This document shows positions 16,106-51,196 of a stretch of 64,000 bases of DNA, in pieces; position 1 is the first letter of the stretch, and each line of letters starts with the position of its first letter. The notes beneath the pieces are model-generated. The model was not told the DNA's origin. It did no database searches and was given only the letters and a program-made list of their open reading frames with translations. The position numbers were made by a program, and so were the translations under genes. This stretch comes from Pseudomonadota bacterium (GTDB taxonomy: Bacteria > Pseudomonadota > Gammaproteobacteria > Pseudomonadales > JADFDG01). The DNA lies in contig JBMOOO010000014.1 in NCBI GenBank assembly GCA_049324475.1, forward strand, positions 6,986 through 70,985, in the 5' to 3' direction.

Positions 16106-16156
16106 TCGTGCTTTAATGGCCGCCGAATTCGAAGAACAACGCGCGAGGAACGCCCC

Positions 16157-17188
16157 ATGTCCGCAAAGTCACCCGCCAGATCCACCGCCGAGCGCCTGCT
16201 CGATGCCCACGTGGCCTTCATGATCGCGCAGCTGGAAAAAGAACCGCTGCGGCTGAACATCGAGGAAGAGCTTGACCATGCGCTGGCCGCCGCCGAGAAG
16301 ATCACCCTGAACGAAGCGGTGACCCGCGACCAGATCAAGGACACGGTCAAGACCTATGCCGTCGACCTGGACCTGCACGGTGCCATTCCGGAACTGGTGG
16401 GCGACATTGCCCGCGCCATCTACAAGCACGGAATCCACGACCGCACCTCCCTCAACGATCTGGTCAGCGACAAGCAGTTCAGCGACCTTTTCGACCAGAT
16501 CATGGAAATGAAGGAACTGCGCGAGAAGATCATCAAGCAGTCGATCGGCAACCCGCTGTACGGTGCGCTGGTGTCGGACGTGCTGTACAACGGCATCAAG
16601 GGCTATATCAACGACAACCCGCTGACCAAGAACAGCCAGGTCGCGGCCGGCGCACTGAAGCTCGGCAAGACCCTGCTGTCCAAGGCGTCGCCCGGGCTGG
16701 AGCAGTCGCTGGAAGACGGCATCAAGAAGTACATCTCCTCCAACATCAAGGCTTCCCAGCGCAGCACCGAGAAATTCATCCGGGCACGGCTGGAGGACGA
16801 TTCGGTCAAGGAACGCGCGATCGACCTGTGGGACGAGCACAAGCACCGCAAGGTGGCCGAGTTCCGCGACTGGATTTCCGAACGCGATGTGGAAGAAGGC
16901 TTCGTCGCCGGTTACGAGTACTGGCGGCGCCTGCGCAAGACCGAGTACTACTGGACCATCATCGCCACCGGCATCGATGCTTTTTTCGACAAGTACGGCA
17001 ACAGCTCGCTGCGCGAAATTCTCGACGAGGTCGGCGTGCACCGGGAGATGATGGTGGCCGAGGCGATGCGCTATGCACCGCCGGTCATCACCATGCTGAA
17101 GCAGAAAGGCCTGCTGGAGCCGCGCATCCGCCGGCAGCTGGAGAAGTTCTACCTCTCCGAAGAAGCACGGGGCATCCTCGGCGACTGA
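16157..17188 (+). CDS. hypothetical cytoplasmic helical protein (343 aa)
   Basis: Lys/Glu/Ile-rich, protein-like composition, in contrast to the antisense shadow ORF 16169-17041. No signal peptide or TM segment. I recognise no motif. Confidence 0.7.
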   Translation: MSAKSPARSTAERLLDAHVAFMIAQLEKEPLRLNIEEELDHALAAAEKITLNEAVTRDQIKDTVKTYAVDLDLHGAIPELVGDIARAIYKHGIHDRTSLNDLVSDKQFSDLFDQIMEMKELREKIIKQSIGNPLYGALVSDVLYNGIKGYINDNPLTKNSQVAAGALKLGKTLLSKASPGLEQSLEDGIKKYISSNIKASQRSTEKFIRARLEDDSVKERAIDLWDEHKHRKVAEFRDWISERDVEEGFVAGYEYWRRLRKTEYYWTIIATGIDAFFDKYGNSSLREILDEVGVHREMMVAEAMRYAPPVITMLKQKGLLEPRIRRQLEKFYLSEEARGILGD

Positions 17189-17231
17189 GCCGGGATGGCG
17201 GATCGACGGGGCCGTGCAGCCGCAGCCGCGC

Positions 17232-17789
17232 CTACACCAGACGCAGCCAGGCCAGGCCGAGCCCCACCGCCAGTCCCGCCAGATGCGACTCCCAGGAACT
17301 GCGCGCCGCTGTCGGCAGCGCGCCCCACAGGATGCCTGAATACAGCATCAGCAACCCGATGCTGATCGCGAGATACAGCAACTGCCCGGACAGGAACCCG
17401 TGCAGCGCCAGGAATCCGAACAATCCATAGACAAGCCCGCTGGCACCGATGTGCACCGCACGGCGTGCCAGCAGCCACACCAGCAGGCCACTGCCGAGGG
17501 CAATCGCCAGCACGACCCACCAGAATCCGGACGGAAACAGCTTGCCCAGCAGCAGCGACAGCACGCACAGCGGCAGCAGGTTGGCAAAAAAGTGGCCGAG
17601 GTTCTCGTGCAGCAATGGCGCCAGGAAAATGCCGGGAACCGAATCGGCATCGCGCGGCACGATGCCCAGCGCATTCAGTTTCCGGAAGGTGACCAGGTTG
17701 ATCAGTTCGGCGGCGATCACCGCCAGCACCAGATACAACCCGGGGCCGGCGTGACCGGCGGCCCACTGCAGCTGTTCGGGGACGCTCAC
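17232..17789 (-). CDS. rhomboid-family intramembrane serine protease
   Basis: Motifs LLHENLGHFFANLL (H..H..N), HIGASGLVYGLFG (GxSG) and a distal ESHLAGL His. I prefer the GTG start at 17789, 13 nt after the pyrC stop. The ATG at 17861 would overlap pyrC by 59 nt, so the start is uncertain. Confidence 0.75.
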   Translation of the reverse strand: MSVPEQLQWAAGHAGPGLYLVLAVIAAELINLVTFRKLNALGIVPRDADSVPGIFLAPLLHENLGHFFANLLPLCVLSLLLGKLFPSGFWWVVLAIALGSGLLVWLLARRAVHIGASGLVYGLFGFLALHGFLSGQLLYLAISIGLLMLYSGILWGALPTAARSSWESHLAGLAVGLGLAWLRLV

Positions 17790-17802
17790 CGGCGCCCCGC
17801 GC

Positions 17803-18843
17803 TCACTCCGCGACCTGCCACTGCAACTCGCGGCCGGCCCAGAACGGCACGATCTCGCCACCGCCGAAGCTCAGCCGTTCCGGCACCGTCCAGGCTTCGC
17901 GTTTCAGCATGATCTTCTGCGTGTTGCGCGGCAGCCGGTAGAAGTCCGGGCCGAAGTGGCTGGCGAAGCCTTCCAGCCGGTCCAGCGCGCCGGCCTGATC
18001 GAAGAATTCCGCGTACAGCGGCAGGGCGGCCGGCGCCGAATAGCAGCCGGCACAGCCGCAGGCATTTTCCTTGGCATGGCGCGCGTGCGGCGCCGAGTCG
18101 GTGCCCAGGAAGAAGCGAGGATCGCCGCTCACCGCCACTTTCTGCAGCATTTCCTGGTGCGTGCGGCGCTTGAGCACCGGCAGGCAGTAGTTGTGCGGGC
18201 GCAGGCCGCCGGTGAACAGGTCATTGCGGTTCATCAGCAGGTGCTGCGGCGTGATGGTGGCGGCAATGCCGGCCCGGGCGCCCAGCACGAACTGCGCGGC
18301 ATCGGCGGTGGTGATGTGTTCGAACACGATGCGCAGTGCCGGGAAACGTTCACTGACCGGCTGCAGGTGGCGTTCGATGAACACCTTCTCGCGATCGAAC
18401 ACATCGATCGCGGCCTCCGTCACCTCGCCATGGACCAGCAGCGGCAGGTCGACTTCCTGCATGGCTTCCAGCACCGGGAAGATTTTCTCCAGTGCCGTCA
18501 CGCCGCCATGCGAATTGGTGGTGGCACCGGCCGGGTAGAGCTTGGCCGCCGTCAGGGTGCCATCGCGTTTACCGGCACGGATGTCGGCCGGGTCCGTGTG
18601 ATCGGTCAGATACAGCACCATCAACGGCTCGAAGGAGACGTTGGCCGGCACGGCGGCGCGAATACGCGCCCGATACTCCCGGGCCAGCGCACTGGTGGTG
18701 ACCGCGGGAACCAGATTCGGCATGCAGATGGCGCGGGCAAACACACGCGCCGTGGCGGGCACCACGTCCGCCAGCACCGTGCCGTCACGAAAATGCAGGT
18801 GCCAGTCGTCCGGGCGGGCGATGCTCAGGGTCTTGCCGGTCAC
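17803..18843 (-). CDS. pyrC: dihydroorotase (class II, homodimeric type)
   Basis: The GTG start at 18843 gives (M)TGKTLSIARPDDWHLHFRDG, co-linear with the E. coli PyrC N-terminus. It also has AKLYPAGATTNS, VHGE, FEHITT and FLGTDSAPH. 347 aa. The upstream part of track ORF 17803-19074 is not protein-like. Confidence 0.9.
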   Translation of the reverse strand: MTGKTLSIARPDDWHLHFRDGTVLADVVPATARVFARAICMPNLVPAVTTSALAREYRARIRAAVPANVSFEPLMVLYLTDHTDPADIRAGKRDGTLTAAKLYPAGATTNSHGGVTALEKIFPVLEAMQEVDLPLLVHGEVTEAAIDVFDREKVFIERHLQPVSERFPALRIVFEHITTADAAQFVLGARAGIAATITPQHLLMNRNDLFTGGLRPHNYCLPVLKRRTHQEMLQKVAVSGDPRFFLGTDSAPHARHAKENACGCAGCYSAPAALPLYAEFFDQAGALDRLEGFASHFGPDFYRLPRNTQKIMLKREAWTVPERLSFGGGEIVPFWAGRELQWQVAE

Positions 18844-18847
18844 AACA

Positions 18848-19864
18848 TCACTCCGCGTTCTGTTTGCGTTTGCGGTACTCGACCGGCGTTTCGCCGACCC
18901 AGCGCTTGAACGCACGGTAGAAGGTACTCGGCTCGGAGAAGCCGGTGAGATAGACGATCTGGTCGATGGTCTCGTCGGTGCGCGCCAGCAGGCGCTTGGC
19001 CAGCCGGCAACGGAAGTCGGCCAGCACCTGGTTGAAGCTGGTGTCGGCCTCGGCCAGGCGCGTGCGCAAGGCACGCGGCTTGATGCCCAGCCGCGCCGCC
19101 ACGTGTTCGAGACTGACTTCGCCGTCTTCCAGACTCTCGCCGATGATGCGCTTCACCTCGGCGACCAGGTCGCGGCGTTCCAGCTCGGCCACCCGCTCGC
19201 TGGCCACCTGTTCGTGCAGGCGCAGCAATTCCGGCTCGGCGTGCAGCGACGGCTTGGCCAGCACGAGACGGTCGAACCAGACACGGTTCTCTTCCGCACC
19301 GAGCTCCACCGGGCAGCCGAACACACGCTGGTACTCCGCCATGGGAGCGCCGTGCGTGTGCCGGAAGCTGATGCGCTCCGGCACGAAGGCACCCTCGGTG
19401 ATGTGCTGGAAAAACCGCACCAGCCCGATGGCCACGCACTCGACCGTGTGCCGGGGCACGGTGCTGCCGGAGCCGTCGATGGAACCGAAAGAGAGATAGC
19501 AGGATGCCGGCGTGAGCTCGAGCCGGGAGTCGACCGCGTCCGACAGCAGCCGCTGGTATTTCTGGGCGCGCTTCAGGCCGTCGCCGAAGGTCGGGCTGGA
19601 CAGGAACAGGTATTCCAGCACCTGGCCGCGGAACACCGGTATGTGCTCGCCCAGCAGCAGACCGCCGTTGGCGTTGCCGGTCACGTCCTCGACCGCGCGC
19701 CAGAACAGGTTGTGGCCGGCGTGCGGCGTGCGCAGGCTGGTGTCGTCAAGCTGGTTTGCAGCCATGCCGAGCCGGTTGAGCACGGCTTCGGCATCCACCC
19801 CGGCGCTGCGCATCGCCTGGTAGATCATCCGCAGCACGATGACGCCGTCGGTCAGTTCGCTCAT
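18848..19864 (-). CDS. AraC-family transcriptional regulator
   Basis: 338 aa. The C-terminal dual HTH reads LGIKPRALRTRLAEADTSFNQVLADFRCRLAKRLL...IDQIVYLTGFSEPSTFYRAFKRWVGETP. The N-terminal ligand-domain pattern matches OruR/ArgR-like AraC proteins. Confidence 0.85.
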   Translation of the reverse strand: MSELTDGVIVLRMIYQAMRSAGVDAEAVLNRLGMAANQLDDTSLRTPHAGHNLFWRAVEDVTGNANGGLLLGEHIPVFRGQVLEYLFLSSPTFGDGLKRAQKYQRLLSDAVDSRLELTPASCYLSFGSIDGSGSTVPRHTVECVAIGLVRFFQHITEGAFVPERISFRHTHGAPMAEYQRVFGCPVELGAEENRVWFDRLVLAKPSLHAEPELLRLHEQVASERVAELERRDLVAEVKRIIGESLEDGEVSLEHVAARLGIKPRALRTRLAEADTSFNQVLADFRCRLAKRLLARTDETIDQIVYLTGFSEPSTFYRAFKRWVGETPVEYRKRKQNAE

Positions 19865-20023
19865 CCGATCCCTTGCCGGTGCCCGTACGGGCCGAAGGAA
19901 GCACTACAAGGGGGCAATAGTAGTGATGTGTCGCCGCCACCGGCAACGATGACGGGCCGGCCGGCGACCGCTGCGCCGGGCATCCGTGCAGGGACTGTCA
20001 ATGGAAGGCCGCGGCGGGCTGCC

Positions 20024-20029
20024 TATAAT
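20024..20029 (+). promoter_or_regulatory. candidate -10 hexamer for the MaoC-like gene
   Basis: A perfect TATAAT lies 52 nt upstream of the ATG at 20081, in an otherwise GC-rich spacer. The hexamer 17 nt upstream (ATGGAA) matches TTGACA poorly. Confidence 0.3.
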
Positions 20030-20080
20030 GGCCGCCCGACCGTGCAATCCGCCCGTGAATCCGTCGTACCGGAGTACCGC

Positions 20081-20947
20081 ATGAACAGCCTGACCACGCG
20101 TGAACTGAACTCGCCGACCCCGACCCTGACGCTGTACCGCCGTGCGCTGCTGCGCCGGAAGACATCGGGCGAGAAGACGCTGCCGCGGCTGTCCCTGCTG
20201 ATGCGCGGCCGCCGCGCCGATCCGCACCAGCTGGAGCTGTACAACCAGGCCTGCGGCTTCCTCACCGGCCGGGAAATGCCGGCGGTCTATCCGCACATCC
20301 TCGCGTTCCCGCTGCACATGGAGCTGATGACGTCCGAGGGCTTCCCGTTCCCGCTGCTCGGCCTGGTGCACATTTCCAACACCATTACCCGCCATCGCCC
20401 GCTGACCATCAACGAAGCGCTGGACATCCACTGCCGTTTCGGCGAGCTGGAGCCGCATGACAAGGGCACGGCATTCAGCGTGATCACGGAAGCCTCGGTA
20501 CAGGGTCGCACGGTCTGGGAGAGCTCCAGCACCATGCTGTACCGCCATCCGGTGCCGGGTGGCGACCGGAAGGAAGCCGCGACGGAAGACGATCTGAAAG
20601 GCGCTGCCAGCGAACTCTGGAAGGTGTCTTCCGACATGGGCCGGCGCTACGCGGCGGCCTCCGGCGACCGCAATCCGATCCACCTGTGGCCGATCACGGC
20701 CAAGGCCTTCGGCTTCAAGCGTCACATCGTGCACGGCATGTGGACCAAGGCCCATGCGGTGGCCAGGCTGGCACCGCAGATCGGTGCCCGCCCGTTCACG
20801 GTGGCGGTCGGCTTCAAGTTGCCGGTATTCCTGCCGGCCGAGGTGAGCTTCATCCAGAAAAAGGACGCCGCCGGCATCCGCTTCGACGTACGCGACAAGG
20901 ACGGCGTGAAACCGCACCTGAAAGGCGCGGTCAAGTTCCTGGATTGA
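20081..20947 (+). CDS. MaoC-like (R)-specific hydratase/dehydratase, double hot-dog (HtdX-like)
   Basis: In-frame ATG at 20081 inside the chimeric track ORF 18641-20947. The C-terminal half has the MaoC signature SGDRNPIHLWPITAKAFGFKRHIVHGMW. Confidence 0.8.
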   Translation: MNSLTTRELNSPTPTLTLYRRALLRRKTSGEKTLPRLSLLMRGRRADPHQLELYNQACGFLTGREMPAVYPHILAFPLHMELMTSEGFPFPLLGLVHISNTITRHRPLTINEALDIHCRFGELEPHDKGTAFSVITEASVQGRTVWESSSTMLYRHPVPGGDRKEAATEDDLKGAASELWKVSSDMGRRYAAASGDRNPIHLWPITAKAFGFKRHIVHGMWTKAHAVARLAPQIGARPFTVAVGFKLPVFLPAEVSFIQKKDAAGIRFDVRDKDGVKPHLKGAVKFLD

Positions 20948-24703: not shown

Positions 24704-26815
24704 TCAGGCCTCGGCATCCACACCCAGCAATTCGCCCAGCGGTCGTGGCTTGCCCACGCCGTAACCCTGCGCGTAATCGACGCCGAATCCGCGCAGCACA
24801 GTCACCAGCGCATCGTTCTCGACGAACTCGGCAATGGTTTTCAGCTGCATCGTGCGCGCCACTTCCGCGGTCGCCTTCACCACCGCCTGGTCGAAGGACG
24901 AGCTTTCCAGCGTCTTGATGAAACCACCGTCGATCTTCAGGTAATCGAACGGGAAGGACTTCAGATAGTCGAAGGTGGCGAGACCGGTGCCAAAATCGTC
25001 CAGCGAAACACTGGCGCCGAACTCGCGCAGGCTTTCGATCAGCCGCCGGGCATGCTCACGGCTGGCAATGGCCTGGCTCTCGGTGATCTCGAAGCACAGC
25101 TTCTGCGGCGCGATGCCGTATTTCTGCACGGTCTGCCGGATCCACGGCGACAGCGCCGGATCGCTGACCGACCAGCCGGTGAGATTGATCGCGCACTTGG
25201 CAAGCTTTGCCGTGGCTTGCGGCTGTGCGGCCAGGAATGCCAGCAGCCGCTCGATCACATAACGGTCGATGGCGCCGGTCAGCTGCGCGCGCTCCGCGGC
25301 AGGCAGAAAATGCCCGGGCGGCAGGATACTGCCGTCACGCTCGCGCAGGCGCAGCAGGATCTCGCAGTGCAGCCCGTCATCAGCACCGCTCAGCGGCACG
25401 ATGGGCTGTGCATACAACACGAAACGCTGTTCCTGCAGCGCCGCCTTCACCTGTTCCTGCCGCCGGACCAGATCGCGACGCTCGGCCACCAGGTCTCGCT
25501 CGCCGGAGGCCACCTCAATGCGCACGCCGGTGCGCGTGGATGCCATCGCCAGTGCCAGGTTGGCCGCGAGCAGCACTTCCTCCACGTCGCGATCGCCCAC
25601 CGGCACCACGGCGATGGTCGGGCGCAATGCGACCACGTCGTGTTCGCCGCGGAACAGCCGGTTGTCGAGCGTGTCGTAGAACGACTGCGCGATGCGACGA
25701 CCACCCGCAGCGTCCTCGCCCGGCAACAGGATGGCGAAGCGCCCGCGGTCCAGTCGCATCGCCTCGTTGCCGTAACGCTGCGGCAGGTCACGCGCCAGCC
25801 CGGTTTCCAGTTCTTCCGTGGCAGCGGCGCCGAGCAGGTCGGCAACGCTGCTGATGTCCTCGATGCGCGCCATCATCAGGCAGGCCTGCTGCCCCTGCAG
25901 CAGCGCCAGCCGTTCACGCAATGCCCGTTCGTTGCCGAGGCCGGTCAGCACGTCGCGGCGGGCAAGATCGCGCTCGCGCTGCAGCATCTCGTTGCGCTCC
26001 ACCGACACCGCGTTCAGCAGCTGTGCCAGCACGGTGAGGCCGGCGATCCGCAGCACCAGCTCAAGCACGTCACGGTTGGAATCCATCGGCCCGGCGCTCA
26101 GGGCCACGGCCAGCATGGTGGACATCAGCAACAGCACGGCCAGATGCAGGAAGGCCGGTCGCGCCCGCATGGCCGGCCAGGCGATCAGCAGGCCGGCCAG
26201 CAGCACGACCACATCACGGATGTCGCTGCGCACGAACAGGGTGAGCCCGAACACCGCCAGTGACACCAGCAGCCAGCGGACTGCCAGCTCGCGGTCCGGC
26301 CACAAGGCGGCGAAGCCGTCACGTGCCAGCGTGCGCGTGAGCAGGCCGAACAGCAGCGCCCCCATCGATTCGGAAACCCAGAAGGCGAAGAACAGTTCGC
26401 CGAAGGCCATGTCGCGGTACAGGCCGGCCCAGTGGAAACCGGCAGCACCGACCAGCGCACTGACCGTGGCGCCGGCACCGACGCCGGCCACATAGAAACG
26501 GGCAATGCGCCCGAGGGCACCGCGACCCAGACCCGCCAGCCCGCGGAAGACGAGCACGCCGGCCGCCGTGCCGGCCGCGATTTCCAGCGAGGCCACGGGT
26601 ACCAGCAGCAGGCTCTGGCCCGTGGCCACGACCCAGACCGCGAACCCGGCCAGCACCGCCAGCAGCCCGGACCCGCCGCGCGCCAGCACCAGGCCCAGGG
26701 CAAGTCCCAGCGGCGGCCACACCAGCGAGGCGTCACCGGTGGCCGACACCCAGCGGGACAGACCGATGGCCAGGGCCGTGCCGGTCGCGGCCAGCAGGAA
26801 CTGCCATGCATTCAT
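24704..26815 (-). CDS. MASE1 membrane sensor - degenerate GGDEF - EAL phosphodiesterase
   Basis: Start taken at MNAWQFLL (26815); 26842 is an alternative. The N-terminal multi-TM region has WPPLGLALGLVL (MASE1-like). The GGDEF position reads RLDRGRF. The EAL domain is intact: EILLRL, FEITES, SLDDFGTG, KIDGGFI, AEFVEN and YAQGY. Confidence 0.8.
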   Translation of the reverse strand: MNAWQFLLAATGTALAIGLSRWVSATGDASLVWPPLGLALGLVLARGGSGLLAVLAGFAVWVVATGQSLLLVPVASLEIAAGTAAGVLVFRGLAGLGRGALGRIARFYVAGVGAGATVSALVGAAGFHWAGLYRDMAFGELFFAFWVSESMGALLFGLLTRTLARDGFAALWPDRELAVRWLLVSLAVFGLTLFVRSDIRDVVVLLAGLLIAWPAMRARPAFLHLAVLLLMSTMLAVALSAGPMDSNRDVLELVLRIAGLTVLAQLLNAVSVERNEMLQRERDLARRDVLTGLGNERALRERLALLQGQQACLMMARIEDISSVADLLGAAATEELETGLARDLPQRYGNEAMRLDRGRFAILLPGEDAAGGRRIAQSFYDTLDNRLFRGEHDVVALRPTIAVVPVGDRDVEEVLLAANLALAMASTRTGVRIEVASGERDLVAERRDLVRRQEQVKAALQEQRFVLYAQPIVPLSGADDGLHCEILLRLRERDGSILPPGHFLPAAERAQLTGAIDRYVIERLLAFLAAQPQATAKLAKCAINLTGWSVSDPALSPWIRQTVQKYGIAPQKLCFEITESQAIASREHARRLIESLREFGASVSLDDFGTGLATFDYLKSFPFDYLKIDGGFIKTLESSSFDQAVVKATAEVARTMQLKTIAEFVENDALVTVLRGFGVDYAQGYGVGKPRPLGELLGVDAEA

Positions 26816-27001
26816 GCCCTGCACCGCTTTTTCTTCGCCCATGCCACCCCCGCCCGCCGAACCTGCATCTTCGCCGGCCCGGGCCGGGCCGGCCACCGGC
26901 AACGGCGTGCATCCGTCAGCCCCTGCGACCGGCGATTCCACCGGTCACGGCCGATCAGTACACTGTGCGCCGCTTTCGACCCGCCCAGCCGGAAACCCGC
27001 C

Positions 27002-31269: not shown

Positions 31270-31389
31270 GCAGAGGCTGAGCGCCAAGGCTTGGAGGCCC
31301 GACAAGCCGCCCGTATAGTGCGAAAAAACGTCGGTCCGCCGTGCCCGGCAACCGCGATAACAACAAAGAACACTCGATGGAGCCTTCGA

Positions 31390-33375: not shown

Positions 33376-33939
33376 TTATGCGCGCAAGCGCGATTGCGGC
33401 GGAAACTGCGCGCGCAGGAATTCCATCTGGTCTCCGAGGATGCGCCGGCTGTTCACCAGCGCCAGATACTCGGCCATGTTCGGCGTGTAGGGCAGTGCCA
33501 GCAGCTCCAGGCCACACTCGTCCAGGGTCCGGCTGCCCTTGTGCTGGTTGCAGCGACGGCAGGCCGTGATCACGTTCAGCCAGGTGTCCTTGCCGCCACG
33601 CGAACGCGGATGGATGTGGTCGCGGGTCAGGTCACGGTCGTAGAACTGCTTGCCGCAGTACAGGCAGATGTTCTGGTCGCGACGGAACAGGGAGCTGTTG
33701 GTCAGCGGCGGCACCGTGCGGTAGGGAGCAAGCAGACGCCCTTCGCAGGCGATGATGCTGTGCACCTCCACCAGCGACTGCAGGCCGGTGATACGGGAGT
33801 GCCCGCCGCGGATGCGGTAGACCACGTCGCCGAGCGTCCAGCCGATCAGGTCCCGCGCATAGAGGCAGACGGCCTGCTCCCAGTCGAGCCATTCGACCGG
33901 TTGTCCCGCCATATCGACCCTCAGGATGCGCGCGGACAT
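33376..33939 (-). CDS. HNH endonuclease-domain protein
   Basis: 187 aa. The HNH/zinc motif reads CLYCGKQF...TRDHIHPRSRGG...NVITACRRCNQHKG. The N-terminal ~90 aa are uncharacterised. An alternative start is at 33912. Confidence 0.8.
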   Translation of the reverse strand: MSARILRVDMAGQPVEWLDWEQAVCLYARDLIGWTLGDVVYRIRGGHSRITGLQSLVEVHSIIACEGRLLAPYRTVPPLTNSSLFRRDQNICLYCGKQFYDRDLTRDHIHPRSRGGKDTWLNVITACRRCNQHKGSRTLDECGLELLALPYTPNMAEYLALVNSRRILGDQMEFLRAQFPPQSRLRA

Positions 33940-37531: not shown

Positions 37532-37702
37532 CACCGGCTCTCCCTGCACAGCGGCCGACAACCGGGCGGTGACATTCCCGCCCGGCCGGAGTCCGACTAT
37601 AGCGCGGCCCGGCCCGCCTTCGGGCCGCGGGCATGACGTGCTATGGTTCCGGCCCGCGCGCATGCCCATGACAACAACACCCGGAACCGTCGGAGACCTT
37701 CC

Positions 37703-38725
37703 ATGCGACCCCTGCGTCCGCTCGCTGCCACACTGAGTGCCCTCGCCCTCGTCCTTGCTGCCACCGCCGCCCAGGCCACGGACCTGACAAAACGGTCGGT
37801 CTGCGTGTTCGACATCGTCGGTACCCATGGCGACCTGTTCAACGCCATGAAGGATTTCCGGATCGAGGCCATGAAGTGGGGCGTCGATCTCGAACTGCGT
37901 CCGTACACCAACGAGAAGATCGCCGCCGAGGACTACAAGGCCGGCCAGTGCGATGCCGCGGTGATGACGGGTCTGCGTGCCCGCACTTTCCTGCCCTATG
38001 CCGGCACCATCGATTCGGTCGGCAGCGTGCCCGACGTCAACCACATGCGGCTGCTGATGCAGGCACTGGCCGACCCCAAGAGCGCACCGAAACTGCGCAA
38101 CGGCCCGTTCGAGGTGGCCGGCATTGCCCCGCTGGGTGCCGCCTACATCTTCACCCGTGACAAGGCCGTGAACAGCCTGACCAAGGCCTCCGGCAAACGC
38201 GTGGCCGTACTCGACTACGATCCGTCACAGGCACGCATGGTGGCGCAGGTCGGCGCCTCGCCGGTGCCCTCCGACATCACCAACTTCGCCGGCAAGTTCA
38301 ACAACGGCTCGGTCGACATCATCGGTGCACCGCTGGCCGCCTACAAACCGCTGGAACTCTGGAAAGGCCTGGAGCCGAACGGCGGCATCATCAACTACCC
38401 GTTCGTGATGCTGTCCATGCAGTTCCTGATCCGTCACGAGAAGTTCGCCGGGACGCCGGACTTCTCGCAGAAATCGCGCGAATATTTCTACGCAAACTTT
38501 GACCGCATCCTGTCTGCGCTGGACAAGGCCGCGCAGGAAGTCCCGCAGAAATACTTCGTCGAGATCCCCGCCACCGACAAGGTCAAGTACGAAGCGCTGA
38601 TGCGCGACGCCCGCGTCCAGCTGCGCAACGAGGGCTATTACAACGGCGACATGCTGACCCTGCTGCGCAAGGTGCGCTGCAAGGTCGACTCCGCGCGCGG
38701 CGAATGCACCGACAAACTCGAATAA
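37703..38725 (+). CDS. periplasmic solute-binding-like protein, paralog 1 (family not recognised)
   Basis: ATG at 37703 with GGAG upstream. Signal peptide MRPLRPLAATLSALALVLAATAAQA. It shares blocks with 44159-45184 and 45241-46302: CVFDI.G.HGD, AAEDYKAGQCDA, GKRVAVLDYDP, GASPVPSDITNFAGKFNNGSVDII and LLRKVRCKVDSARGECTDKLE. Confidence 0.8.
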   Translation: MRPLRPLAATLSALALVLAATAAQATDLTKRSVCVFDIVGTHGDLFNAMKDFRIEAMKWGVDLELRPYTNEKIAAEDYKAGQCDAAVMTGLRARTFLPYAGTIDSVGSVPDVNHMRLLMQALADPKSAPKLRNGPFEVAGIAPLGAAYIFTRDKAVNSLTKASGKRVAVLDYDPSQARMVAQVGASPVPSDITNFAGKFNNGSVDIIGAPLAAYKPLELWKGLEPNGGIINYPFVMLSMQFLIRHEKFAGTPDFSQKSREYFYANFDRILSALDKAAQEVPQKYFVEIPATDKVKYEALMRDARVQLRNEGYYNGDMLTLLRKVRCKVDSARGECTDKLE

Positions 38726-39935: not shown

Positions 39936-40004
39936 TGCACCGGCTCGCGGCTCCGTGTAAATTTGGAACGTTAGTGCCACATTAAAAGAACAACAGGAGT
40001 CCCG

Positions 40005-43996: not shown

Positions 43997-44158
43997 GGGG
44001 CCGCCGGGGGACCGGCGCCCCGTCCGGGGCCTGAGGGGGCATTTACCGCAAAGGCCATGACCGGCGGGCGAATCGGTCATGGACCGGGGGCAGGGGTTGC
44101 GGAACAGTAGGCGGTCCGGGTCTACCCGCAGAACAACAACCCCCGCCGAGGCTCCCCG

Positions 44159-45184
44159 ATGCGTCTGTTCGCCCTGCCAGCTCTCCTGCTGTCCGCCCTG
44201 CTGTTCTCCACCGGCTCCGGTGCCGCGGACCAGCAGGTACCCGCCAATGTGGTCAAGCGGAAGTTCTGCGTGTTCGATATCGCCGGCGCGCACGGTGACA
44301 TCTACCGCACCATGCAGGACTACCGGCTGGAGATGCTCAAGCACGGGGTCGATTTCGAGCTGGTGCCCTACACCAGCGAGAAGATTGCCGCCGAGGACTT
44401 CAAGGCCGGCCTGTGCGATGCCGCCGACCTGACCTCGTTCCGTATCCGCAACTTCATCAAGTTTGCCGGCACTGTCGACGCGGTCGGCGCACTGCCGACC
44501 CGCGAGCACGTACGCCTGGCACTGCAGGCCCTGGCCCATCCCAGCATGGCGCCGAAGCTGAAGAGCGGCCCGTATGAGATCGCCGGCATCGTGCCGATCG
44601 GCGCGGCCTACGTGTTCAGCCGCGACCGCCGCATCGACACCATCACCAAGGCTGCCGGCAAGCGCGTGGCCGTACTCGACTACGACCCGGAGATGGCAAA
44701 GATGGTGTCGCGCCTCGGCGCCTCGCCGGTGCCCTCCGACATCACCAACTTCGCCGGCAAATTCAACAACGGTTCGGTCGACATCATCGTGGCACCGATC
44801 GCTGCCTACAAACCCCTGGAACTGTACAAGGGCCTGGAGCCGAGCGGCGGCATCATCGATTTCCCCTTCACCCAGCTCTCCGCCATGGTGATCGTGCGCA
44901 GCGAGAAATTCCCGCCGGACATGCTGCAGTTCGCCCGCGAGGAAATCTTCCGCAACCTCGACCGCATCTACGAAATTGTCGACCGCATGGGCACCGATGT
45001 GCCGAAGAAGTACTGGGTCCCGATTCCGGAAGCGGACAAGGGCAAGTATGAAATCCTGATGCGCGACACCCGCATCCAGCTGCGCGAAACCGGCTACTAC
45101 GACGGCGAGGCCCTGACCCTGCTGCGCAAGGTGCGCTGCAAGGTCGAGCCGGCCCGCGCGGAGTGCACCGACAAGACCGAGTAG
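44159..45184 (+). CDS. periplasmic solute-binding-like protein, paralog 2
   Basis: 341 aa. Signal peptide MRLFALPALLLSALLFSTGSGA. It has the same conserved blocks as 37703-38725, including a 73-nt stretch differing at only 2 positions. Confidence 0.8.
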   Translation: MRLFALPALLLSALLFSTGSGAADQQVPANVVKRKFCVFDIAGAHGDIYRTMQDYRLEMLKHGVDFELVPYTSEKIAAEDFKAGLCDAADLTSFRIRNFIKFAGTVDAVGALPTREHVRLALQALAHPSMAPKLKSGPYEIAGIVPIGAAYVFSRDRRIDTITKAAGKRVAVLDYDPEMAKMVSRLGASPVPSDITNFAGKFNNGSVDIIVAPIAAYKPLELYKGLEPSGGIIDFPFTQLSAMVIVRSEKFPPDMLQFAREEIFRNLDRIYEIVDRMGTDVPKKYWVPIPEADKGKYEILMRDTRIQLRETGYYDGEALTLLRKVRCKVEPARAECTDKTE

Positions 45185-45240
45185 GCACCCCATCCCGGAA
45201 ATCCTTTCCGGAATCCCGAAACGGCCACTGGAGAACAACA

Positions 45241-46302
45241 ATGAAAAGACTGCTGGCTGCCCTTGCCCTGACCGCGTTTGCCACCACGGCGGGCGCGGCC
45301 GACATCAAGGCCGAAGACTTCATCTCTGCACCCGGCGTGAAAGCGCCGGCCCCGGTCAGCGGCCCTCCGCTCAAACGCAAGGTCTGTGTCTGGGACATCG
45401 CCGGTGCCAACGGTGACCTGTTCCGGACCATGGCCGACCTGCGCATCGGCATCCTGCGCTACGGCATCGACCTGGAGCTGCTGCCCTACACCAGCGAGCG
45501 GGTCGCCGCCGAGGACTTCAAGGCCGGCCAGTGCGATGCGGTCAACCTGATGACACTGCGTGCGCGGAACTTCATCAAGTTCTCCGGATCCCTGGATGCG
45601 ATCGGCGCCCTGCCGACCCGCGAGCACCTGCGCCTGGCCCTGACCGCACTGGCCGATCCGCGCATGGCTCCGAAGCTGAAAAGCGGCCCGTATGAAGTGG
45701 CCGCGTTCATCCCGATCGGCGCGGCCTACATCTTCACCAATGACCGCAGCGTGACGTCGATCGCCAAGGCCTCGGGCAAACGCATCGCCGTGCTCGACTA
45801 CGATCCGACCATGTCGAAGATGATCGCCGGTATCGGCGCCTCACCGGTGCCTTCCGACGTCACCAACTTCGCCGGCAAGTTCAACAACGGCTCGGTCGAC
45901 ATCATTGCCGCGCCGCTGGCCGCCTACAGCCCGTTCGAGCTGTACAAGGGGCTGGAACCGCGCGGAGGGATCGTCGATTTCCCGTTCACCCAGCTGACCG
46001 CGCAGGTGCTGGTGCGCAGCGACAAGTTCCCGGCCGAGATGCTGCAGTACTCGCGCACGGTGGTGGCCCGCCACTTTGAGTCGACCATGGAAATCGTGGA
46101 CGCGATGTCCGGCGAAATTCCGGCCAAGTACTGGATCAAGATCCCGAAGACCGACCAACTGCGCTATGAGCTGATGATGCGGGAAGCCCGCGTCCAGCTG
46201 CGCGAGGAAGGCTATTACGACGGCGACATGCTGGCCCTGCTGCGCAAGATCCGCTGCAAGCTGGATTCCGGCCGCGGCGAGTGCACCGACAAGCAGGAGT
46301 AA
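45241..46302 (+). CDS. periplasmic solute-binding-like protein, paralog 3
   Basis: ATG at 45241 preceded by GGAG. Signal peptide MKRLLAALALTAFATTAGA. It has the same conserved blocks and ends LLRKIRCKLDSGRGECTDKQE. Confidence 0.8.
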   Translation: MKRLLAALALTAFATTAGAADIKAEDFISAPGVKAPAPVSGPPLKRKVCVWDIAGANGDLFRTMADLRIGILRYGIDLELLPYTSERVAAEDFKAGQCDAVNLMTLRARNFIKFSGSLDAIGALPTREHLRLALTALADPRMAPKLKSGPYEVAAFIPIGAAYIFTNDRSVTSIAKASGKRIAVLDYDPTMSKMIAGIGASPVPSDVTNFAGKFNNGSVDIIAAPLAAYSPFELYKGLEPRGGIVDFPFTQLTAQVLVRSDKFPAEMLQYSRTVVARHFESTMEIVDAMSGEIPAKYWIKIPKTDQLRYELMMREARVQLREEGYYDGDMLALLRKIRCKLDSGRGECTDKQE

Positions 46303-46312
46303 CCCCCTGCCG

Positions 46313-46386: not shown

Positions 46387-47358
46387 CTACCGTTTTTTCT
46401 TGCCGTGCAGCGGAATCACGTCGACCGGATGATCGGCGGAACGGCCGACATGCTTGTGGATGAAACGACCGATCTCGCGCACCGCCTCCTTGCCTTCCGG
46501 GATGAAATACGCCAGCGCCTGGAACACGTGCATCATGCCCGGATACACCGTCAGCTTGACCGGAATGCGCGCCTTCTTCGCCGCCGCCTCGACCCGTTCG
46601 GCATCCGACAACAGCACTTCGTTGCCGCCCACCTGGATCAGCAACGGCGGAAATCCGCTGTAGTCGCCGTAGATCGGCGACAGGAACGGATCGTGCGGCG
46701 AATGCTCGCCGGCATAGACCCGCGCCAGGAATTTCAGCACATTCACCGGAATGTAGGGCTCGTGGCGTGCGTTCTCCCGCAGCGAATCACCGGTGGCGGT
46801 GAGATCGGCCCAGGGTGAAATCAGCACGGCACCGGCCGGCAGCGGCAGGCCCAGCTCGCGGAATTTCAGCATGGACACCAGCGTCAGGTTGCCGCCGGCG
46901 CTGTCGCCGCCGATGAAGATGTTCTGCGGCTCGTAGCCGCGGGCCAGCAGCCAGCGATACACACGCACCACGTCCCAGATCGGTGCCGGGTATTCGTGGT
47001 CCGGCGGCTGCCGGTAATCCACCGCCAGCACTTTCATGCGGCCGGCCTGGGAGATGCGCCAGGTCAGCGTGCGGTGCGAACGCGGCGAACCGAAGAAATA
47101 GCCACCGCCATGCAGATAGATGAACACGCGATCCTGGTGCAGTTCGTCCGCACACACCACCCATTCGCAGGGCACGTCGCCGGCGTGTACGGGAATGATC
47201 TCGGCATTGCGCGGCACCGGCAGCACCATGGTCAGGGCATCAAACCCGAGCTGCGAGAATTTCATCAGGCGCGGCGTGAACTTCACCCGCGCGATCACCG
47301 GTTTCACGAAAGTACGCGCGGCCAGGTTCAGGGCCTGCGCCTGCCAGCTGGTGGTCAT
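46387..47358 (-). CDS. alpha/beta hydrolase, hormone-sensitive-lipase-type esterase/lipase
   Basis: Oxyanion motif YLHGGGYFFGSP and nucleophile GGDSAGGN. I prefer the ATG at 47358 (GGAG 8-11 nt upstream) to the track start at 47391. Confidence 0.8.
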   Translation of the reverse strand: MTTSWQAQALNLAARTFVKPVIARVKFTPRLMKFSQLGFDALTMVLPVPRNAEIIPVHAGDVPCEWVVCADELHQDRVFIYLHGGGYFFGSPRSHRTLTWRISQAGRMKVLAVDYRQPPDHEYPAPIWDVVRVYRWLLARGYEPQNIFIGGDSAGGNLTLVSMLKFRELGLPLPAGAVLISPWADLTATGDSLRENARHEPYIPVNVLKFLARVYAGEHSPHDPFLSPIYGDYSGFPPLLIQVGGNEVLLSDAERVEAAAKKARIPVKLTVYPGMMHVFQALAYFIPEGKEAVREIGRFIHKHVGRSADHPVDVIPLHGKKKR

Positions 47359-47412
47359 CCGGTCTGCTCCGTGTTCTTGTTGTTCTGGCATGAGGGTCCG
47401 CCACCGGCGAGT

Positions 47413-48735
47413 CTACAACCGGGTCAGCGTCACCGGCAGCCCGTCGCGCGGCTTCGCGATCGGCACCAGCTGGTAAGGCATGCGGTAGTGGCGCGGTACG
47501 CTCCAGCGGTAGCGCAGCAGGACCTGGTGCAGGATGGCCTTGACCTGCAGGTCGGCGAAATGCTGGCCGATGCACATATGGGCGCCGCCGCCGAAAGGCA
47601 CCCAGGCATACGGGTGGCGCTTGTGCTCATCGCGGCCAGGCGCAAACCGTTCGGGATCAAAGCGGAACGGTTGTGACCAGATCTCTTCCATGTGGTGGGT
47701 GTGGATCGGTGCCAGCCCGATCTGGGTATGGGCGGGAATGCGGTAACCCATGAATTCGAATTCACGGGTCGCGTAGCGCGGCATCACCGGCAGTGGCGGG
47801 TAACGGCGCAGCGCTTCCTTCATGGTCCAGCCCAGTGCCGCCAGCTTTTCCAGATCGTCGAATTCCAGTCCGTCCCGCGCCAGCGCCCGCGACTCCTCGC
47901 GCAGGCGTTCCTGCCAGGCCGGCTCCTGCCCGAGCGCGTAGAACATGGTGGTCAAGGTGGACGTGGTGGTGTCATGCGCCGCCATCATCAGGAATGCCAT
48001 GTGATCGACGATCTCGTCGTCGGTGTAGCGTTCACCGGATTCACTGACGGCATGGCAGAACGCGCTGAAGAAATCCGGTGTTTCGCGCGCGCGCTTTCCC
48101 GGCAGCAGACCGTGGAAGGTGCGCACCAGATGCTCGCGGCCGCGCAGGCCGCGCCGGTACAGCGTGCCTGGCAGGTCGAAGCGCACCGCTGCAATGGAAC
48201 CTTCCACCGTATCGATGAAGGCCTGGTTCAGGCGCGTGGCCTCGACACCCGGCTCGATGCCCATGAACACCCGCGAGGCAAGATCCAGCGTGAGCTGCTT
48301 GACCGCCGGGAACACGCGGAAATCGCTGCCGCTCTGCCAGGCACGCAAGCCGTCGGCGATGTGCCCGTTCATGTGTCCCAGGTAGGTGACCAGCGCCGGC
48401 TTCTTGAACGCGTGGTTCATGATCCGGCGCTGGAAGCGGTGCTCCTCGCCGTCCATGGTCATGATCGCGCCCGGGAATACGTGATCGATCACCCAGCCCC
48501 AGCCCAGGCGCGAGGAAAAGATCTCGTCGCGGTTCTGCAGCACCAGCTGGTTGGCCTCGGGCCCGAACAGCGCCACGCTGGACAGCTTGCCCCAGCCGCT
48601 GCGCACCACCGGACCGTTGCGCCGGTACAGCTCGCGGGTGGTGGCGCCGATGTCACGATAGAAACCGACGAAGTACTGGAACGGCCAGGAACCGTTGTCG
48701 TGGGGAATCCGGTGATCGGCGGCCAGCGTGGTCAT
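47413..48735 (-). CDS. cytochrome P450 monooxygenase
   Basis: Start at MTTLAADHRIP (48735). Heme-thiolate loop FGGGAHMCIGQHFA, I-helix MMAAHDTTTS and EALRRYPP (ExxR). Confidence 0.88.
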   Translation of the reverse strand: MTTLAADHRIPHDNGSWPFQYFVGFYRDIGATTRELYRRNGPVVRSGWGKLSSVALFGPEANQLVLQNRDEIFSSRLGWGWVIDHVFPGAIMTMDGEEHRFQRRIMNHAFKKPALVTYLGHMNGHIADGLRAWQSGSDFRVFPAVKQLTLDLASRVFMGIEPGVEATRLNQAFIDTVEGSIAAVRFDLPGTLYRRGLRGREHLVRTFHGLLPGKRARETPDFFSAFCHAVSESGERYTDDEIVDHMAFLMMAAHDTTTSTLTTMFYALGQEPAWQERLREESRALARDGLEFDDLEKLAALGWTMKEALRRYPPLPVMPRYATREFEFMGYRIPAHTQIGLAPIHTHHMEEIWSQPFRFDPERFAPGRDEHKRHPYAWVPFGGGAHMCIGQHFADLQVKAILHQVLLRYRWSVPRHYRMPYQLVPIAKPRDGLPVTLTRL

Positions 48736-48786
48736 CGGTACCTCTGCAGGGCGGCGGAAACGGGCACGTTGACCGCAGTCTGCCAT

Positions 48787-48797
48787 TGGTATGACCA
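48787..48797. promoter_or_regulatory. candidate GntR/FadR-type operator 1
   Basis: TGGTATGACCA (TGGT-N3-ACCA palindrome) lies in the P450/phyH divergent spacer and is followed by a half-site, TTTGGTCACC. Confidence 0.5.
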
Positions 48798-48862
48798 TTT
48801 GGTCACCCGCCGATCGTCTTCCGACCGGCTGCACTGGCCGCGGGCGCCTGTCACGGGCAGAG

Positions 48863-48873
48863 TGGTCTGACCA
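48863..48873. promoter_or_regulatory. candidate GntR/FadR-type operator 2
   Basis: TGGTCTGACCA is a second perfect TGGT-N3-ACCA palindrome, 14 nt upstream of the phyH-like ATG. Confidence 0.5.
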
Positions 48874-48886
48874 ATAACGCGGATCA

Positions 48887-49693
48887 TTGGCCATGCCCCT
48901 GAACGCACTCCCGGCAGACGAGAAAGCCTTCTACGAATCAGAGGGTTACCTGCTCCGGCGCGGCCTGTTCACGCAGGGCGAACTCGCACCCTGGCTGCAG
49001 CGGCTGGACGACATCATCACCGGGCAGATCGCTCGCCCCGCCAACATGCTGGTGATGAAGGACATCATGGTGGCCAAGGGCCGTGTGCAGGCTGCCCGTC
49101 CGCAGGATGCCGTCGCCAAGGTCCAGGACCTGCAGGACGACCCGGTGTTCAGCACCTACCTGTTCAGCGAAAAGCTGCTCGACCTGGTCGAGAACTTCTG
49201 CGGCCCGGACATCAAGACCGTGCACAACATGCTGATCAACAAGCCGCCGGGCGTGGACGGCCGCCACCCGTTGCACCAGGACCTGCTGTATTTCCCGTTC
49301 CGGCCGGAAGACCGCATCGTCGCCACCTGGACTGCGCTGGAAGCCGTGAACCGCGACAACGGCTGCCTCGCGGTGATTCCCGGCTCGCATCGCGAAGGTC
49401 TGCGCGAGCACGGCAACATCGACGACAACCGCAATATCAACCTGGCCTATTTCGGCGCGAAGGATGTCGATCTCGGGCGTCGCGTGCACATCGCGATGGA
49501 TGCCGGCGACGTGCTGTTTTTCCACCCGCTGCTGCTGCACGGTTCCGGCCGCAACCGCTCCGCGGGCTACCGGCGTGCGATTTCGGCACACTATGCGTCC
49601 TGTGGATGCCGCTATGTCGCCAACGGCGAGCAGATGGCGAAAGTCCGCCACTACCGGCTGGCGCGCGGCAACGAAGTGCCTGGAGGGCTGTGA
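48887..49693 (+). CDS. phytanoyl-CoA dioxygenase (PhyH) family Fe(II)/2-oxoglutarate oxygenase
   Basis: 268 aa. The HxD motif is within HPLHQDLLYF, the distal His is within FFHPLLLHGSGRN, and RRAISAHY is also present. Confidence 0.8.
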   Translation: MAMPLNALPADEKAFYESEGYLLRRGLFTQGELAPWLQRLDDIITGQIARPANMLVMKDIMVAKGRVQAARPQDAVAKVQDLQDDPVFSTYLFSEKLLDLVENFCGPDIKTVHNMLINKPPGVDGRHPLHQDLLYFPFRPEDRIVATWTALEAVNRDNGCLAVIPGSHREGLREHGNIDDNRNINLAYFGAKDVDLGRRVHIAMDAGDVLFFHPLLLHGSGRNRSAGYRRAISAHYASCGCRYVANGEQMAKVRHYRLARGNEVPGGL

Positions 49694-50388
49694 TGAAAGC
49701 ACGCAAGGGACTGTCGCAATCGCTGTACGAAACCCTGCGCGACAAGATCGTGGCCGGCGACTACCCGCCGGGCGTGCGCCTGCCCGCCGAACGCGAGCTG
49801 GTGGAGCTGTACGGCGTCAACCGCGGCGCGGTGCGCGAGGCCATCAACCGGCTGGCGCAATCCGGGCTGGTGGCCACCGTGCACGGCGGCGGCACGCGGG
49901 TGGAGAACTACCTGTCGACGGCCGGGCTGGACCTGCTGGTGACACTGGTGGTGGCCGGCGACGGCACGCACCGGCGCGAGGCCGTGCGCAGCCTGATCGA
50001 GATGCGCACGGCACTGGCGGTGGATGCCGCGCGGCTGGCGGCGCAGCGCCGCCACGAATCCCAGGTGGCGACATTGCGCACGCTGGCACACGGTCTTGCC
50101 ACGATGTCGGACGATGCCTCGCTGCAGGATCGCCTGCTCGCCGTGTGGGAAGGCATCGTGGCCGCCAGCGGCAATCTCGCCTACCGGCTGGCTTTCAACA
50201 CCCTGCGCGACGGCTACCTGCTGTTCGGCAAGCCCATGCACCAGGTGGTGCGGGAATCCTTCCACGCACCGGACTACCGCTTCCTGATCGATGCCATCGC
50301 CATCGGTGACGCGGCGCGCGCCGAACGGGGTGCGCGCCGCATCGTGGAGAAGGACGCCGCCGCCTTCATCACCCGCTTCAGCCTCTGA
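49693..50388 (+). CDS. GntR-family (FadR-subfamily) transcriptional regulator
   Basis: The ATG overlaps the phyH-like stop (TGATG). The wHTH reads LYETLRDKIVAGDYPPGVRLPAERELVELYGVNRGAVREAINRLAQSGLV. The C-terminal domain is all-helical. Confidence 0.85.
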   Translation: MKARKGLSQSLYETLRDKIVAGDYPPGVRLPAERELVELYGVNRGAVREAINRLAQSGLVATVHGGGTRVENYLSTAGLDLLVTLVVAGDGTHRREAVRSLIEMRTALAVDAARLAAQRRHESQVATLRTLAHGLATMSDDASLQDRLLAVWEGIVAASGNLAYRLAFNTLRDGYLLFGKPMHQVVRESFHAPDYRFLIDAIAIGDAARAERGARRIVEKDAAAFITRFSL

Positions 50389-51067
50389 GCGCGCGATACA
50401 CCGTCACGTGCTTCACCCACTCCGCCTCGCCGAGATCGGGTACCGCAATGCAGTCCTGCGACCACAGCCGCTCGTAGCCGGGCTCCCGGAAATCACGCAC
50501 CCGCGAATCCGCCACCAGCACGGTGCCGGCGCGACGGCGGAAGTCGGCCAGGAAAGGCATGTTCTCCCGGTCGTACAACACGTCGGCGGCAGCGATCAGG
50601 TCGATATCGCCGTCGCACGTGAAGTAGTCCGGCGACAGCTCCACCGACACGCCGTTCAGGCGCGCGTTGGCCCGCGCCGCGGCCAGTGATTGCGGATCGA
50701 TGTCGCAGGCAATGGCGCGACGTGCACCGGCCCGTGCCGCCGCCACGGCCACCACGCCGGAGCCGGCGCCGAAATCCAGTACGGTACGGCCGTGCACGGC
50801 CTGCGGATGGTCCAGCAGCCAGCGTGCCAGCACGGCGCCGCTGCCCCAGCAGAACGCCCAGTACGGCGGGCTCTCCATCAGGGTGCGGGCCACTTCCGGC
50901 GGCAGCGGCCCTGCCGGGTAATCGGCGTTGATCAGCCACAGCCTCAGTTCCGGTACCAGTGGCAGCGCCGCCGGTACCAGGTGTGCACCGGGCAGCAGGC
51001 CACGCAGGCCGGCATCCAGGGACTGGGCGTCGGGACAGATGACGGATGCAGCGTCGGTCATAGGCAA
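50378..51067 (-). CDS. class I SAM-dependent methyltransferase (PrmA / protein-lysine MTase-like)
   Basis: 229 aa. Motif I is VLDFGAGSGVVAVAAARAG, followed by IACDIDP. The convergent gene overlaps the GntR gene's end by 11 nt. Confidence 0.7.
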   Translation of the reverse strand: MPMTDAASVICPDAQSLDAGLRGLLPGAHLVPAALPLVPELRLWLINADYPAGPLPPEVARTLMESPPYWAFCWGSGAVLARWLLDHPQAVHGRTVLDFGAGSGVVAVAAARAGARRAIACDIDPQSLAAARANARLNGVSVELSPDYFTCDGDIDLIAAADVLYDRENMPFLADFRRRAGTVLVADSRVRDFREPGYERLWSQDCIAVPDLGEAEWVKHVTVYRALRG

Positions 51068-51196
51068 GCCGGGGCAGTACCGCTAAAGTCGCTGGGTCGC
51101 TTTTGTCGCCGGAACCGCTCCCGCACAGGCTGTGCCGGATTCCGGTGAGCGCCGCACGCTACACGAATCGCCGACAACAACAAGACCGGAGCGGCC

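Follow-up and report, generated by a model that had tools for sequence, protein, structure and literature searches.

Start-proximal AAnAAnAA octamers in an uncultured gammaproteobacterial lineage: candidate Hfq distal-face sites on binding-protein and exported-protein genes

A short A-rich motif, AAnAAnAA, recurs directly upstream of start codons in a stretch of 64,000 nucleotides (nt) of DNA from an uncultured bacterium of the Pseudomonadota (assembly GCA_049324475.1, contig JBMOOO010000014.1, positions 6,986 to 70,985; hereafter the window). Seven strict octamers of this kind had been pointed out in an earlier note made from the letters of the window, and each of them has been re-found exactly where that note placed it. 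Their accumulation in front of genes, mostly those of binding proteins and other exported proteins, is real and strongly non-random. The octamers may well be sites for the distal face of Hfq, of the type known in Pseudomonas as the Crc-associated catabolite-repression (CA) motif, which would repress translation initiation; this reading is given about an even chance of being right.

The gene map on which the counts rest was built with a codon-usage model derived from long open reading frames of high third-position G+C, from which non-overlapping frames were picked. Starts were chosen by coding score together with a match to the Shine–Dalgarno (SD) sequence, which yielded 59 genes and 58 start windows (positions −40 to +3). 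Contigs identical to the window are present in three Logan runs. The starts agree with the gene calls on identical or near-identical public contigs (7723, 47358, 48893, 51197, 53225, and others), and an independent gene caller applied to the identical Logan contigs returned the same starts for 51197 and 47358. All seven starts that the earlier note assigned to the motif have GGAG or GAGG 6–10 nt upstream.

The G+C content of the window is 66.4%, and dinucleotide-preserving shuffles give 3.70 ± 2.12 matches on both strands (largest value 9), whereas 16 are seen; a regular-expression count and a pattern tool agree on this number. The form AACAACAA is found five times against 0.49 expected, and all five copies lie just 5′ of a start codon. 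The motif is present in 8 of the 58 start windows on the sense strand and in none (0/58) on the antisense strand. Per-window shuffles expect 0.42–0.44 such windows (maximum 3–4), none of 5000 trials reaches 8, and a pooled first-order Markov model expects 0.23. A lack of enrichment near starts, which in the earlier note would have spoken against its reading, is clearly contradicted: the enrichment is about 20-fold over the local expectation. When the 16 matches are classified, eight are intragenic (seven sense, one antisense; mostly runs of Lys codons of the AAAAAGAA or AAGAAAAA type) and eight are intergenic, making up seven sites. All seven intergenic sites are in the sense orientation and at most 31 nt from a start (−31 to −7). 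Sense positions up to 40 nt upstream of a start make up 17.5% of the intergenic strand-positions, and 7/7 sites fall there (p = 5e-6); the 3′ intergenic and antisense intergenic positions of the window hold no octamer. The sites, one near-match, which was likewise re-found in its place, and one excluded match are as follows.

16132–16139, plus strand: AAGAACAA, 17 nt before ATG 16157 and 5 nt 5′ of GAGG; uncharacterized cytoplasmic protein of 343 residues.
31359–31366, plus strand: AACAACAA, extended AACAACAAAGAACA, 23 nt before ATG 31390; uncharacterized exported protein of 424 residues with a signal peptide.
37671–37679, plus strand: near-match ACAACAACA, 23 nt before ATG 37703; AdeT/TRAP-DctP-like binding protein, paralogue 1.
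39986–39993, plus strand: AAGAACAA running into AGGAG, 11 nt before ATG 40005; FAD-linked oxidoreductase of the ALO family, exported, with a twin-arginine (Tat) signal.
44132–44139, plus strand: AACAACAA (AGAACAACAAC), 19 nt before ATG 44159; AdeT/TRAP-like binding protein, paralogue 2.
45234–45241, plus strand: AACAACAA between GGAG and ATG 45241, the final A of the octamer being the A of the ATG; AdeT/TRAP-like binding protein, paralogue 3.
47374–47384, minus strand: AACAACAAGAA, two overlapping octamers (AACAACAA at 47377–47384 and AACAAGAA at 47374–47381) with four AAN triplets, 15 nt before ATG 47358; hormone-sensitive-lipase-type esterase, cytoplasmic, no signal peptide.
51176–51183, plus strand: AACAACAA (ACAACAACAAG), 13 nt before GTG 51197 and 4 nt 5′ of GGAG; uncharacterized exported protein of 625 residues.
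7683–7690, plus strand: AAGAAAAA, 32 nt before ATG 7723; excluded, Lys-rich C-terminal coding sequence of plsB.

The last match was rejected as an eighth site: it is made of Lys-rich C-terminal codons of plsB and is therefore coding-derived, so that the count becomes 7/58 rather than 8/58. A relative (L013, ~12509–12516) keeps it as AAGAAGAA because the plsB C-terminus is Lys-rich, and in both genomes the octamer lies 32–44 nt before the next gene, encoding a small membrane protein, in the place expected of a leader motif. Two further occurrences stand apart from the list. On the minus strand, AAGAAAAA at 26828–26835 precedes by 12 nt an in-frame ATG at 26815 (MNAWQ...) in a MASE1-GGDEF-EAL gene whose start is uncertain (candidates 26941, 26896, 26842, and 26815); this would be one more leader site if the start is 26815. 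To the left of the window in the same organism, on a near-identical Logan contig (L014, ~3794–3805), the gene 3′ of an extracytoplasmic-function (ECF) sigma factor gene begins with ATGAACAACAAC; the AACAACAA octamer is within its first codons, and its start overlaps the end of the sigma gene.

The motif also surfaces in an unsupervised k-mer scan of the −40 to −1 windows, where GGAG ranks first and the top 6-mers after it are AACAAC (9 windows against 0.8 expected) and ACAACA (8 against 0.8). Among the arrangements of six A residues in eight positions, AAnAAnAA is present in 8 windows and any other in at most 2; CCnCCnCC and GGnGGnGG, taken as controls, show no enrichment. The same pipeline, self-trained on each sequence, has been applied to three other replicons. 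The motif is present in 0/62 start windows of the Ralstonia GMI1000 megaplasmid (two 50 kb samples, 66–69% G+C) and in 0/50 of S. meliloti pSymB (50 kb, 63% G+C); these two high-GC controls pooled (0/112) differ from the window with a Fisher p of 1e-4 (8/58) or 4e-4 (7/58). The motif is not a generic high-GC feature. In 100 kb of P. putida pWW0, it is present in 2/87 start windows, those of a sigma-54 regulator gene adjoining xylS and of an annotated benA-type dioxygenase gene, both belonging to the toluene/xylene pathway, which is under Crc control.

Conservation was followed in relatives syntenic with the window between its positions 28 and 57 kb (58–90% protein identity), whose leaders were aligned on the start codon. 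Five syntenic loci, taken from a species-representative genome collection, are metagenome-assembled genomes (MAGs) of unclassified Gammaproteobacteria or Pseudomonadota. In orthologues of 58–85% protein identity, the motif has stayed in its place and the flanks have changed, and the variants seen there (AAGAACAA, AACAAGAA, AATAACAA, and AAGAACAATAA) keep every A and alter N. With our own gene caller, the motif is found in 4/16, 4/17, 2/20, 2/20, 2/9, 1/19, and 1/7 sense start windows of the relatives, for which shuffles give means of 0.07–0.36 windows, and in no antisense window throughout. In L010, where the gene calls are those of the collection, it precedes both AdeT paralogues, the 51197 orthologue and one autotransporter gene.

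The best conserved site is 51176, with the strict motif in 6/7 orthologues down to 58% protein identity (L010) and with diverging flanks. The strict motif of 31359 is present in both orthologues seen (2/2; L003 as AATAACAA and L004 as AACAACAA), immediately 5′ of AGGAG. The 45241 leader also has it in 2/2 orthologues, immediately 5′ of AGGAG in L002 (AAGAATAACAACAA) and farther upstream in L001 (AACAACAA). In front of the esterase gene at 47358, the motif is found in 3/6 orthologues (L001, L002, and L005) and is absent from L003, L004, and L009. Site 44132 is strict in 2/6 (L001, AACAAGAA; L002, AACAACAA), has one-mismatch forms in L003 and L004, and is lost in L005 and L009. At 37703, where the window itself has the near-match, strict AACAACAA is present in 1/5 orthologues (L001), and CA-rich near-matches occupy the same place in L002, L003, L004, and L009. 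The 51197 leader has a second conserved feature: just 5′ of the 51176 motif (window 51062–51175) lie two blocks, CTAAAGTC and GCACGCTACACGA(A/T)T(C/G)GCC, which are kept in L001, L002, and L010, down to 58% protein identity, and which in the window are separated by an extra ~50 nt containing CCGGATTCCGG. These blocks may be a promoter or an operator, although they contain no recognizable sigma-70 consensus.

In the neighbourhood of plsB, the motif is rare, being found in at most 1/19 genes of L013, that one coding-derived, and upstream of 2/20 complete genes of L011 (collection gene calls); it is therefore specific to a gene class and does not mark the leaders of this lineage as a whole. The same gene helps to place the host. 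PlsB of the window (5178–7700) is 100% identical to a protein of “MAG: Pseudomonadota bacterium” encoded on a 78 kb contig, and its relatives form ~14 clusters of 72–84% identity, all from uncultured organisms (MAGs or metagenome contigs). The next matches are at most 51% identical and come from Moraxellaceae, Alcanivoracaceae, Hahella, Marinobacteraceae, Alkalimarinus, and Chitinimonas (a betaproteobacterium). Given this drop from at least 72% to at most 51%, the host belongs to an isolated uncultured lineage and not to Pseudomonas, the genus from which the earlier note had borrowed its precedent. Upstream of plsB, the contig L014 differs from window 4862–5177 by 16 extra bases in the intergenic region (coordinate offset 4807 before the extra bases and 4823 after), which suggests strain-level indel variation.

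The anatomy of the motif has been derived from an alignment of 21 start-proximal instances of the window and its relatives, site 45234 being extra since its flank is too short to tabulate. Of the 42 bases at the two N positions, 30 are C, 8 are G, 2 are T, and 2 are A. In 18/21 instances an A stands two positions 5′ of the octamer, forming a partial fourth triplet, and the consensus is therefore A-N-AAC-AAC-AA. The motif ends 0–12 nt (median 5) before the SD sequence and 11–23 nt before the start codon, the exception being 45234, which sits between SD and ATG. In non-coding leaders, pairs of ACA are spaced by 3, 6, and 9 nt in 22, 12, and 10 windows, against 1–3 windows for spacings of 4, 5, 7, and 8, and pairs of AAC and of CAA likewise favour 3, 6, and 9 over 4, 5, 7, and 8. 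Each site thus holds three or four AAN triplets, so that no fewer than three A-R-N triplets follow one another in register. A three-nucleotide register with fixed A and variable N is what binding of one triplet per protein subunit predicts. According to partition-function folding of positions −70 to +40, the motif is predicted to be unpaired with P = 0.79–0.98 (0.79 at 16132 and 0.94 at 31359), against 0.40–0.56 for the rest of the leader.

As for the genes, the statement of the earlier note that five strict matches and the near-match precede proteins with signal peptides is right; starts 16157 and 47358 belong to non-exported products. Exported products, judged by eye, account for 5/8 of the genes with a start-proximal motif and for 6/50 of the others (Fisher p = 0.004). 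Six sites are gathered in a 20 kb stretch rich in genes for binding proteins and exported proteins, against at most 1/19 genes near plsB in L013, which accords with transporters being the conserved Crc targets. The products of 37703 (near-match), 44159, and 45241 are paralogues of the AdeT1_2 family, weakly TRAP-DctP-like, with signal peptides. Pfam and NCBIfam hold no family for the products of 16157, 31390, and 51197, searches of PDB sequences with the 44159 and 51197 proteins gave no match, and an exact-protein lookup of the 44159 product and of the gene at the right end of the window gave none either. The remaining genes of the window are those of lipid and peripheral metabolism and encode PlsB, a thiolase, SDR, MaoC, a desaturase, P450, PhyH, a FadR-like regulator, START, patatin, and CoA-transferase proteins, as well as sensor kinases and regulators. 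The three AdeT1_2 genes (37703–38725, 44159–45184, and 45241–46302) have no adjoining TRAP membrane components, and the likeness of their products to TRAP DctP is below the NCBIfam cut-off; the paralogues are 54–65% identical to each other across genomes and are kept in all relatives.

Under the interpretation favoured here, single-stranded (AAN)3–4 tracts in the mRNA leaders would be docking sites for the distal face of Hfq, each subunit of the hexamer contacting one A-A-N triplet, possibly with a Crc-like partner and possibly without it. With a hexamer bound next to it, the ribosome-binding site would be closed to the 30S subunit, and translation would stay low as long as Hfq is not titrated away and the mRNA not over-induced, by a logic like that of the Pseudomonas CA motif. 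That Hfq binds, that it represses and does not activate, that Crc has any part in this, and what signal gives relief are all matters that we infer from the leaders.

In Pseudomonas, the CA site has the form AAnAAnAA (or AAnAAnAAnAA) and lies in the 5′ untranslated region near the SD sequence; essentially an ARN motif, it is recognized by the distal face of Hfq, and Crc stabilizes the Hfq–CA complex. The genes whose translation initiation is blocked in this way serve to take up and use non-preferred substrates, and the block is lifted by CrcZ-type RNAs, which have several CA motifs (PMC5113210, PMC5990048). Hfq alone can also repress translation through ARN sites, as stated in the introduction of one of these papers (PMC5990048). 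Browne et al. (2010) found the motif in the −70 to +16 region of 279 PAO1 and 294 KT2440 genes, with a false-discovery estimate of 27%, and described transporters as Crc targets conserved across species (PMC3003667).

The sites of the window share with those of amiE, alkS, benR, rbsB, and transporter genes of Pseudomonas the consensus, the sense strand, the placement at the ribosome-binding site and the unpaired state (predicted here), and the kinds of targets are also the same (uptake proteins and peripheral catabolic enzymes), with conservation strongest for transport-type genes. As with the Pseudomonas motif, they are found on the mRNA strand, at about −70 to +16 and near the SD sequence, above chance, and are kept in orthologues. 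They differ in the strong bias of N to C and in their host, an uncultured lineage whose PlsB shares no more than 51% identity with that of any named family. They also differ in density: a Pseudomonas genome has about 5,500 genes, of which 279 or 294 candidates make up ~5%, against 12–14% of genes here (8/58, or 14%, by the −70 to +16 rule), in one region that may be a hot spot. With the enterobacterial Hfq (ARN)n sites, the leaders have in common three or four A-R-N triplets in exact three-nucleotide register, single-stranded and near the start, with no need for Crc. They differ from them in that A is the one base enriched at R and AGN is not: AANAANAA is found 22 times against 1.7 expected, whereas ARNARNAR with at least one G at R shows no enrichment (14 against 9.1, p = 0.06). 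The enterobacterial ARN rule is therefore broader than the specificity of these leaders.

The lack of AGN enrichment is the first of several points that weigh against Hfq sites. The “free” N is not free, since it is C in 71% of cases against ~33% C in the same leaders; this bias to C could stem from contact with a protein, from an ACA enhancer or from the avoidance of structure. The predicted unpaired state is nearly automatic for a tract made of A and C alone. Sites 16132 and 39986 have no strict motif in their orthologues, the former having a near-match in the sole orthologue seen (0/1, L012) and the latter being 0/2 (L001 and L002), and are the least supported of all. The protein side also fails to appear: none of hfq, crc, and cbrAB is among the 59 genes of the window, the 141 kb covered in relatives (seven loci) shows neither these genes nor a multi-motif sponge RNA, and Rfam families, CrcZ/CrcY and GcvB included, have no match in either. 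A tRNA scan of the window gave no match either, and no intergenic cluster of three or more motifs, as in a sponge RNA, is present in the window, which is a small part of the genome. Since the sequence covered is such a small part, the absence of hfq, crc, cbrAB, and CrcZ is weak negative evidence. Hfq is expected in Gammaproteobacteria generally. The host falls outside the Pseudomonadaceae, to which the CbrAB–CrcZ module is described as unique (PMC8871633), and the literature on the distribution of Crc outside Pseudomonas offered nothing usable. Membership of the Pseudomonas Hfq/Crc–CbrAB–CrcZ system is thus unproven; the sites behave like a CA/ARN site. The interpretation of the earlier note is partly supported: motif, strand, position beside the ribosome-binding site and target classes fit the published definition of the Hfq/Crc motif, and the host is not Pseudomonas. 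Occlusion by Hfq, with Crc as a possible partner, is accordingly given no more than an even probability, because the protein side was not seen in the available sequence.

The alternative that survives best is that the tracts are CA-rich (ACA-type) translational enhancers or ribosome standby sites, perhaps acting via ribosomal protein S1, on the mRNAs of abundant periplasmic proteins, and that a G/U-rich small RNA like GcvB may pair with them. Such a role is possible, if rather doubtful, and it is compatible with Hfq binding, the two not being mutually exclusive. Its precedent is found in Salmonella and E. coli, where C/A-rich ACA tracts upstream of the SD sequence of gltI, dppA, and yifK mRNAs are translational enhancers and pairing targets of GcvB, those of yifK and dppA being flexible in position and additive in effect, with no fixed spacing (PMC3879156). 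The leaders of the window resemble them in having an A/C-only tract just 5′ of the SD sequence of binding-protein and transporter mRNAs, and every strict site except the excluded 7683 has at least one ACA, which fits an enhancer as well as it fits Hfq. The predominance of C at N, the place of ACAACA among the top 6-mers, the predicted lack of pairing and the predominance of binding and exported proteins among the carriers suit it too. What speaks against an enhancer is the strict spacing of 3, 6, or 9 nt and the conservation of the A positions rather than of ACA: the orthologue variants listed above accept G or T in place of C at N and keep every A, by which an ACA is destroyed and the seed of a single small RNA would be mismatched. 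Moreover, all motif genes already have a strong GGAG or GAGG, sodB and plsB, presumably well expressed, have no such tract, and no GcvB was detected at any of the loci searched.

A signal at the DNA level, such as a promoter element or an operator through which one transcription factor serves all these genes, is very unlikely. Promoters must, it is true, also be located in the short intergenic regions that hold the sites, and a separate conserved block stands just 5′ of the 51197 motif. Yet ~24 start-window matches are sense and none antisense in the window and relatives together (L004 included), and their position follows the SD sequence and the start (0–12 nt from GGAG, in one case between SD and ATG). 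Dyad symmetry is absent, the sites of 40005 and 45241 lie 56–69 nt after an upstream co-directional gene, and no sigma-70-like promoter was found in a scan of 36–54 kb. The same scan proposed “terminators” at 51196–51184 and 44153–44138 on the minus strand, which were rejected: they consist of the motif complement TTGTTGTT after a weak stem of 5–6 bp, lie on the wrong side of any minus-strand gene and are by-products of the motif.

That the octamers are due to chance, to composition or to functionless (AAC)n microsatellites is hardly credible, for although the leaders (21% A) are somewhat A-richer than the whole window and AAC repeats can arise by slippage, composition-preserving shuffles of the leaders give 0.4 where 8 are seen, dinucleotide shuffles of the whole window never attain the observed counts, orthologous positions are conserved at 58–85% protein identity, 3′ intergenic and antisense positions are free of matches, and the high-GC controls give 0/112.

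Three observations concern other genes of the window. The HNH endonuclease gene (33376–33939, minus strand) and SodB (53225–53803) are 86–90% and 90–96% identical across the relatives, respectively, against 60–80% for their neighbours. The P450 gene (47413–48894, minus strand) has a public start at 48735 (440 residues) and a longer frame starting at 48894 (493 residues), whose ATG would be back-to-back with that of the divergent PhyH gene at 48893 (plus strand). Matches of tblastn to the relatives begin at residue 44–50 of the long form, and the start at 48735 is therefore favoured.

No new principle is involved here, and the leaders form a natural test set for Hfq occlusion against CA-rich enhancers, being short, with one motif each and with C, G, or T at N. 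A bolder proposal, which is unlikely as a whole, is that this uncultured, deep-branching gammaproteobacterial lineage runs a dense CA-motif regulon (about one gene in eight here) on binding proteins and exported enzymes in the absence of CbrAB–CrcZ, through Hfq alone or with a Crc-like or other partner and a different antagonist RNA, the preference for C being a partner-specific contact. More generally, if these are sites of Hfq, with or without Crc, translational catabolite control through A-rich motifs would extend well beyond Pseudomonas and Azotobacter to lineages known from metagenomes only, and the motif could then tell, with nothing but sequence at hand, which genes of uptake and peripheral catabolism are “non-preferred” in such organisms.

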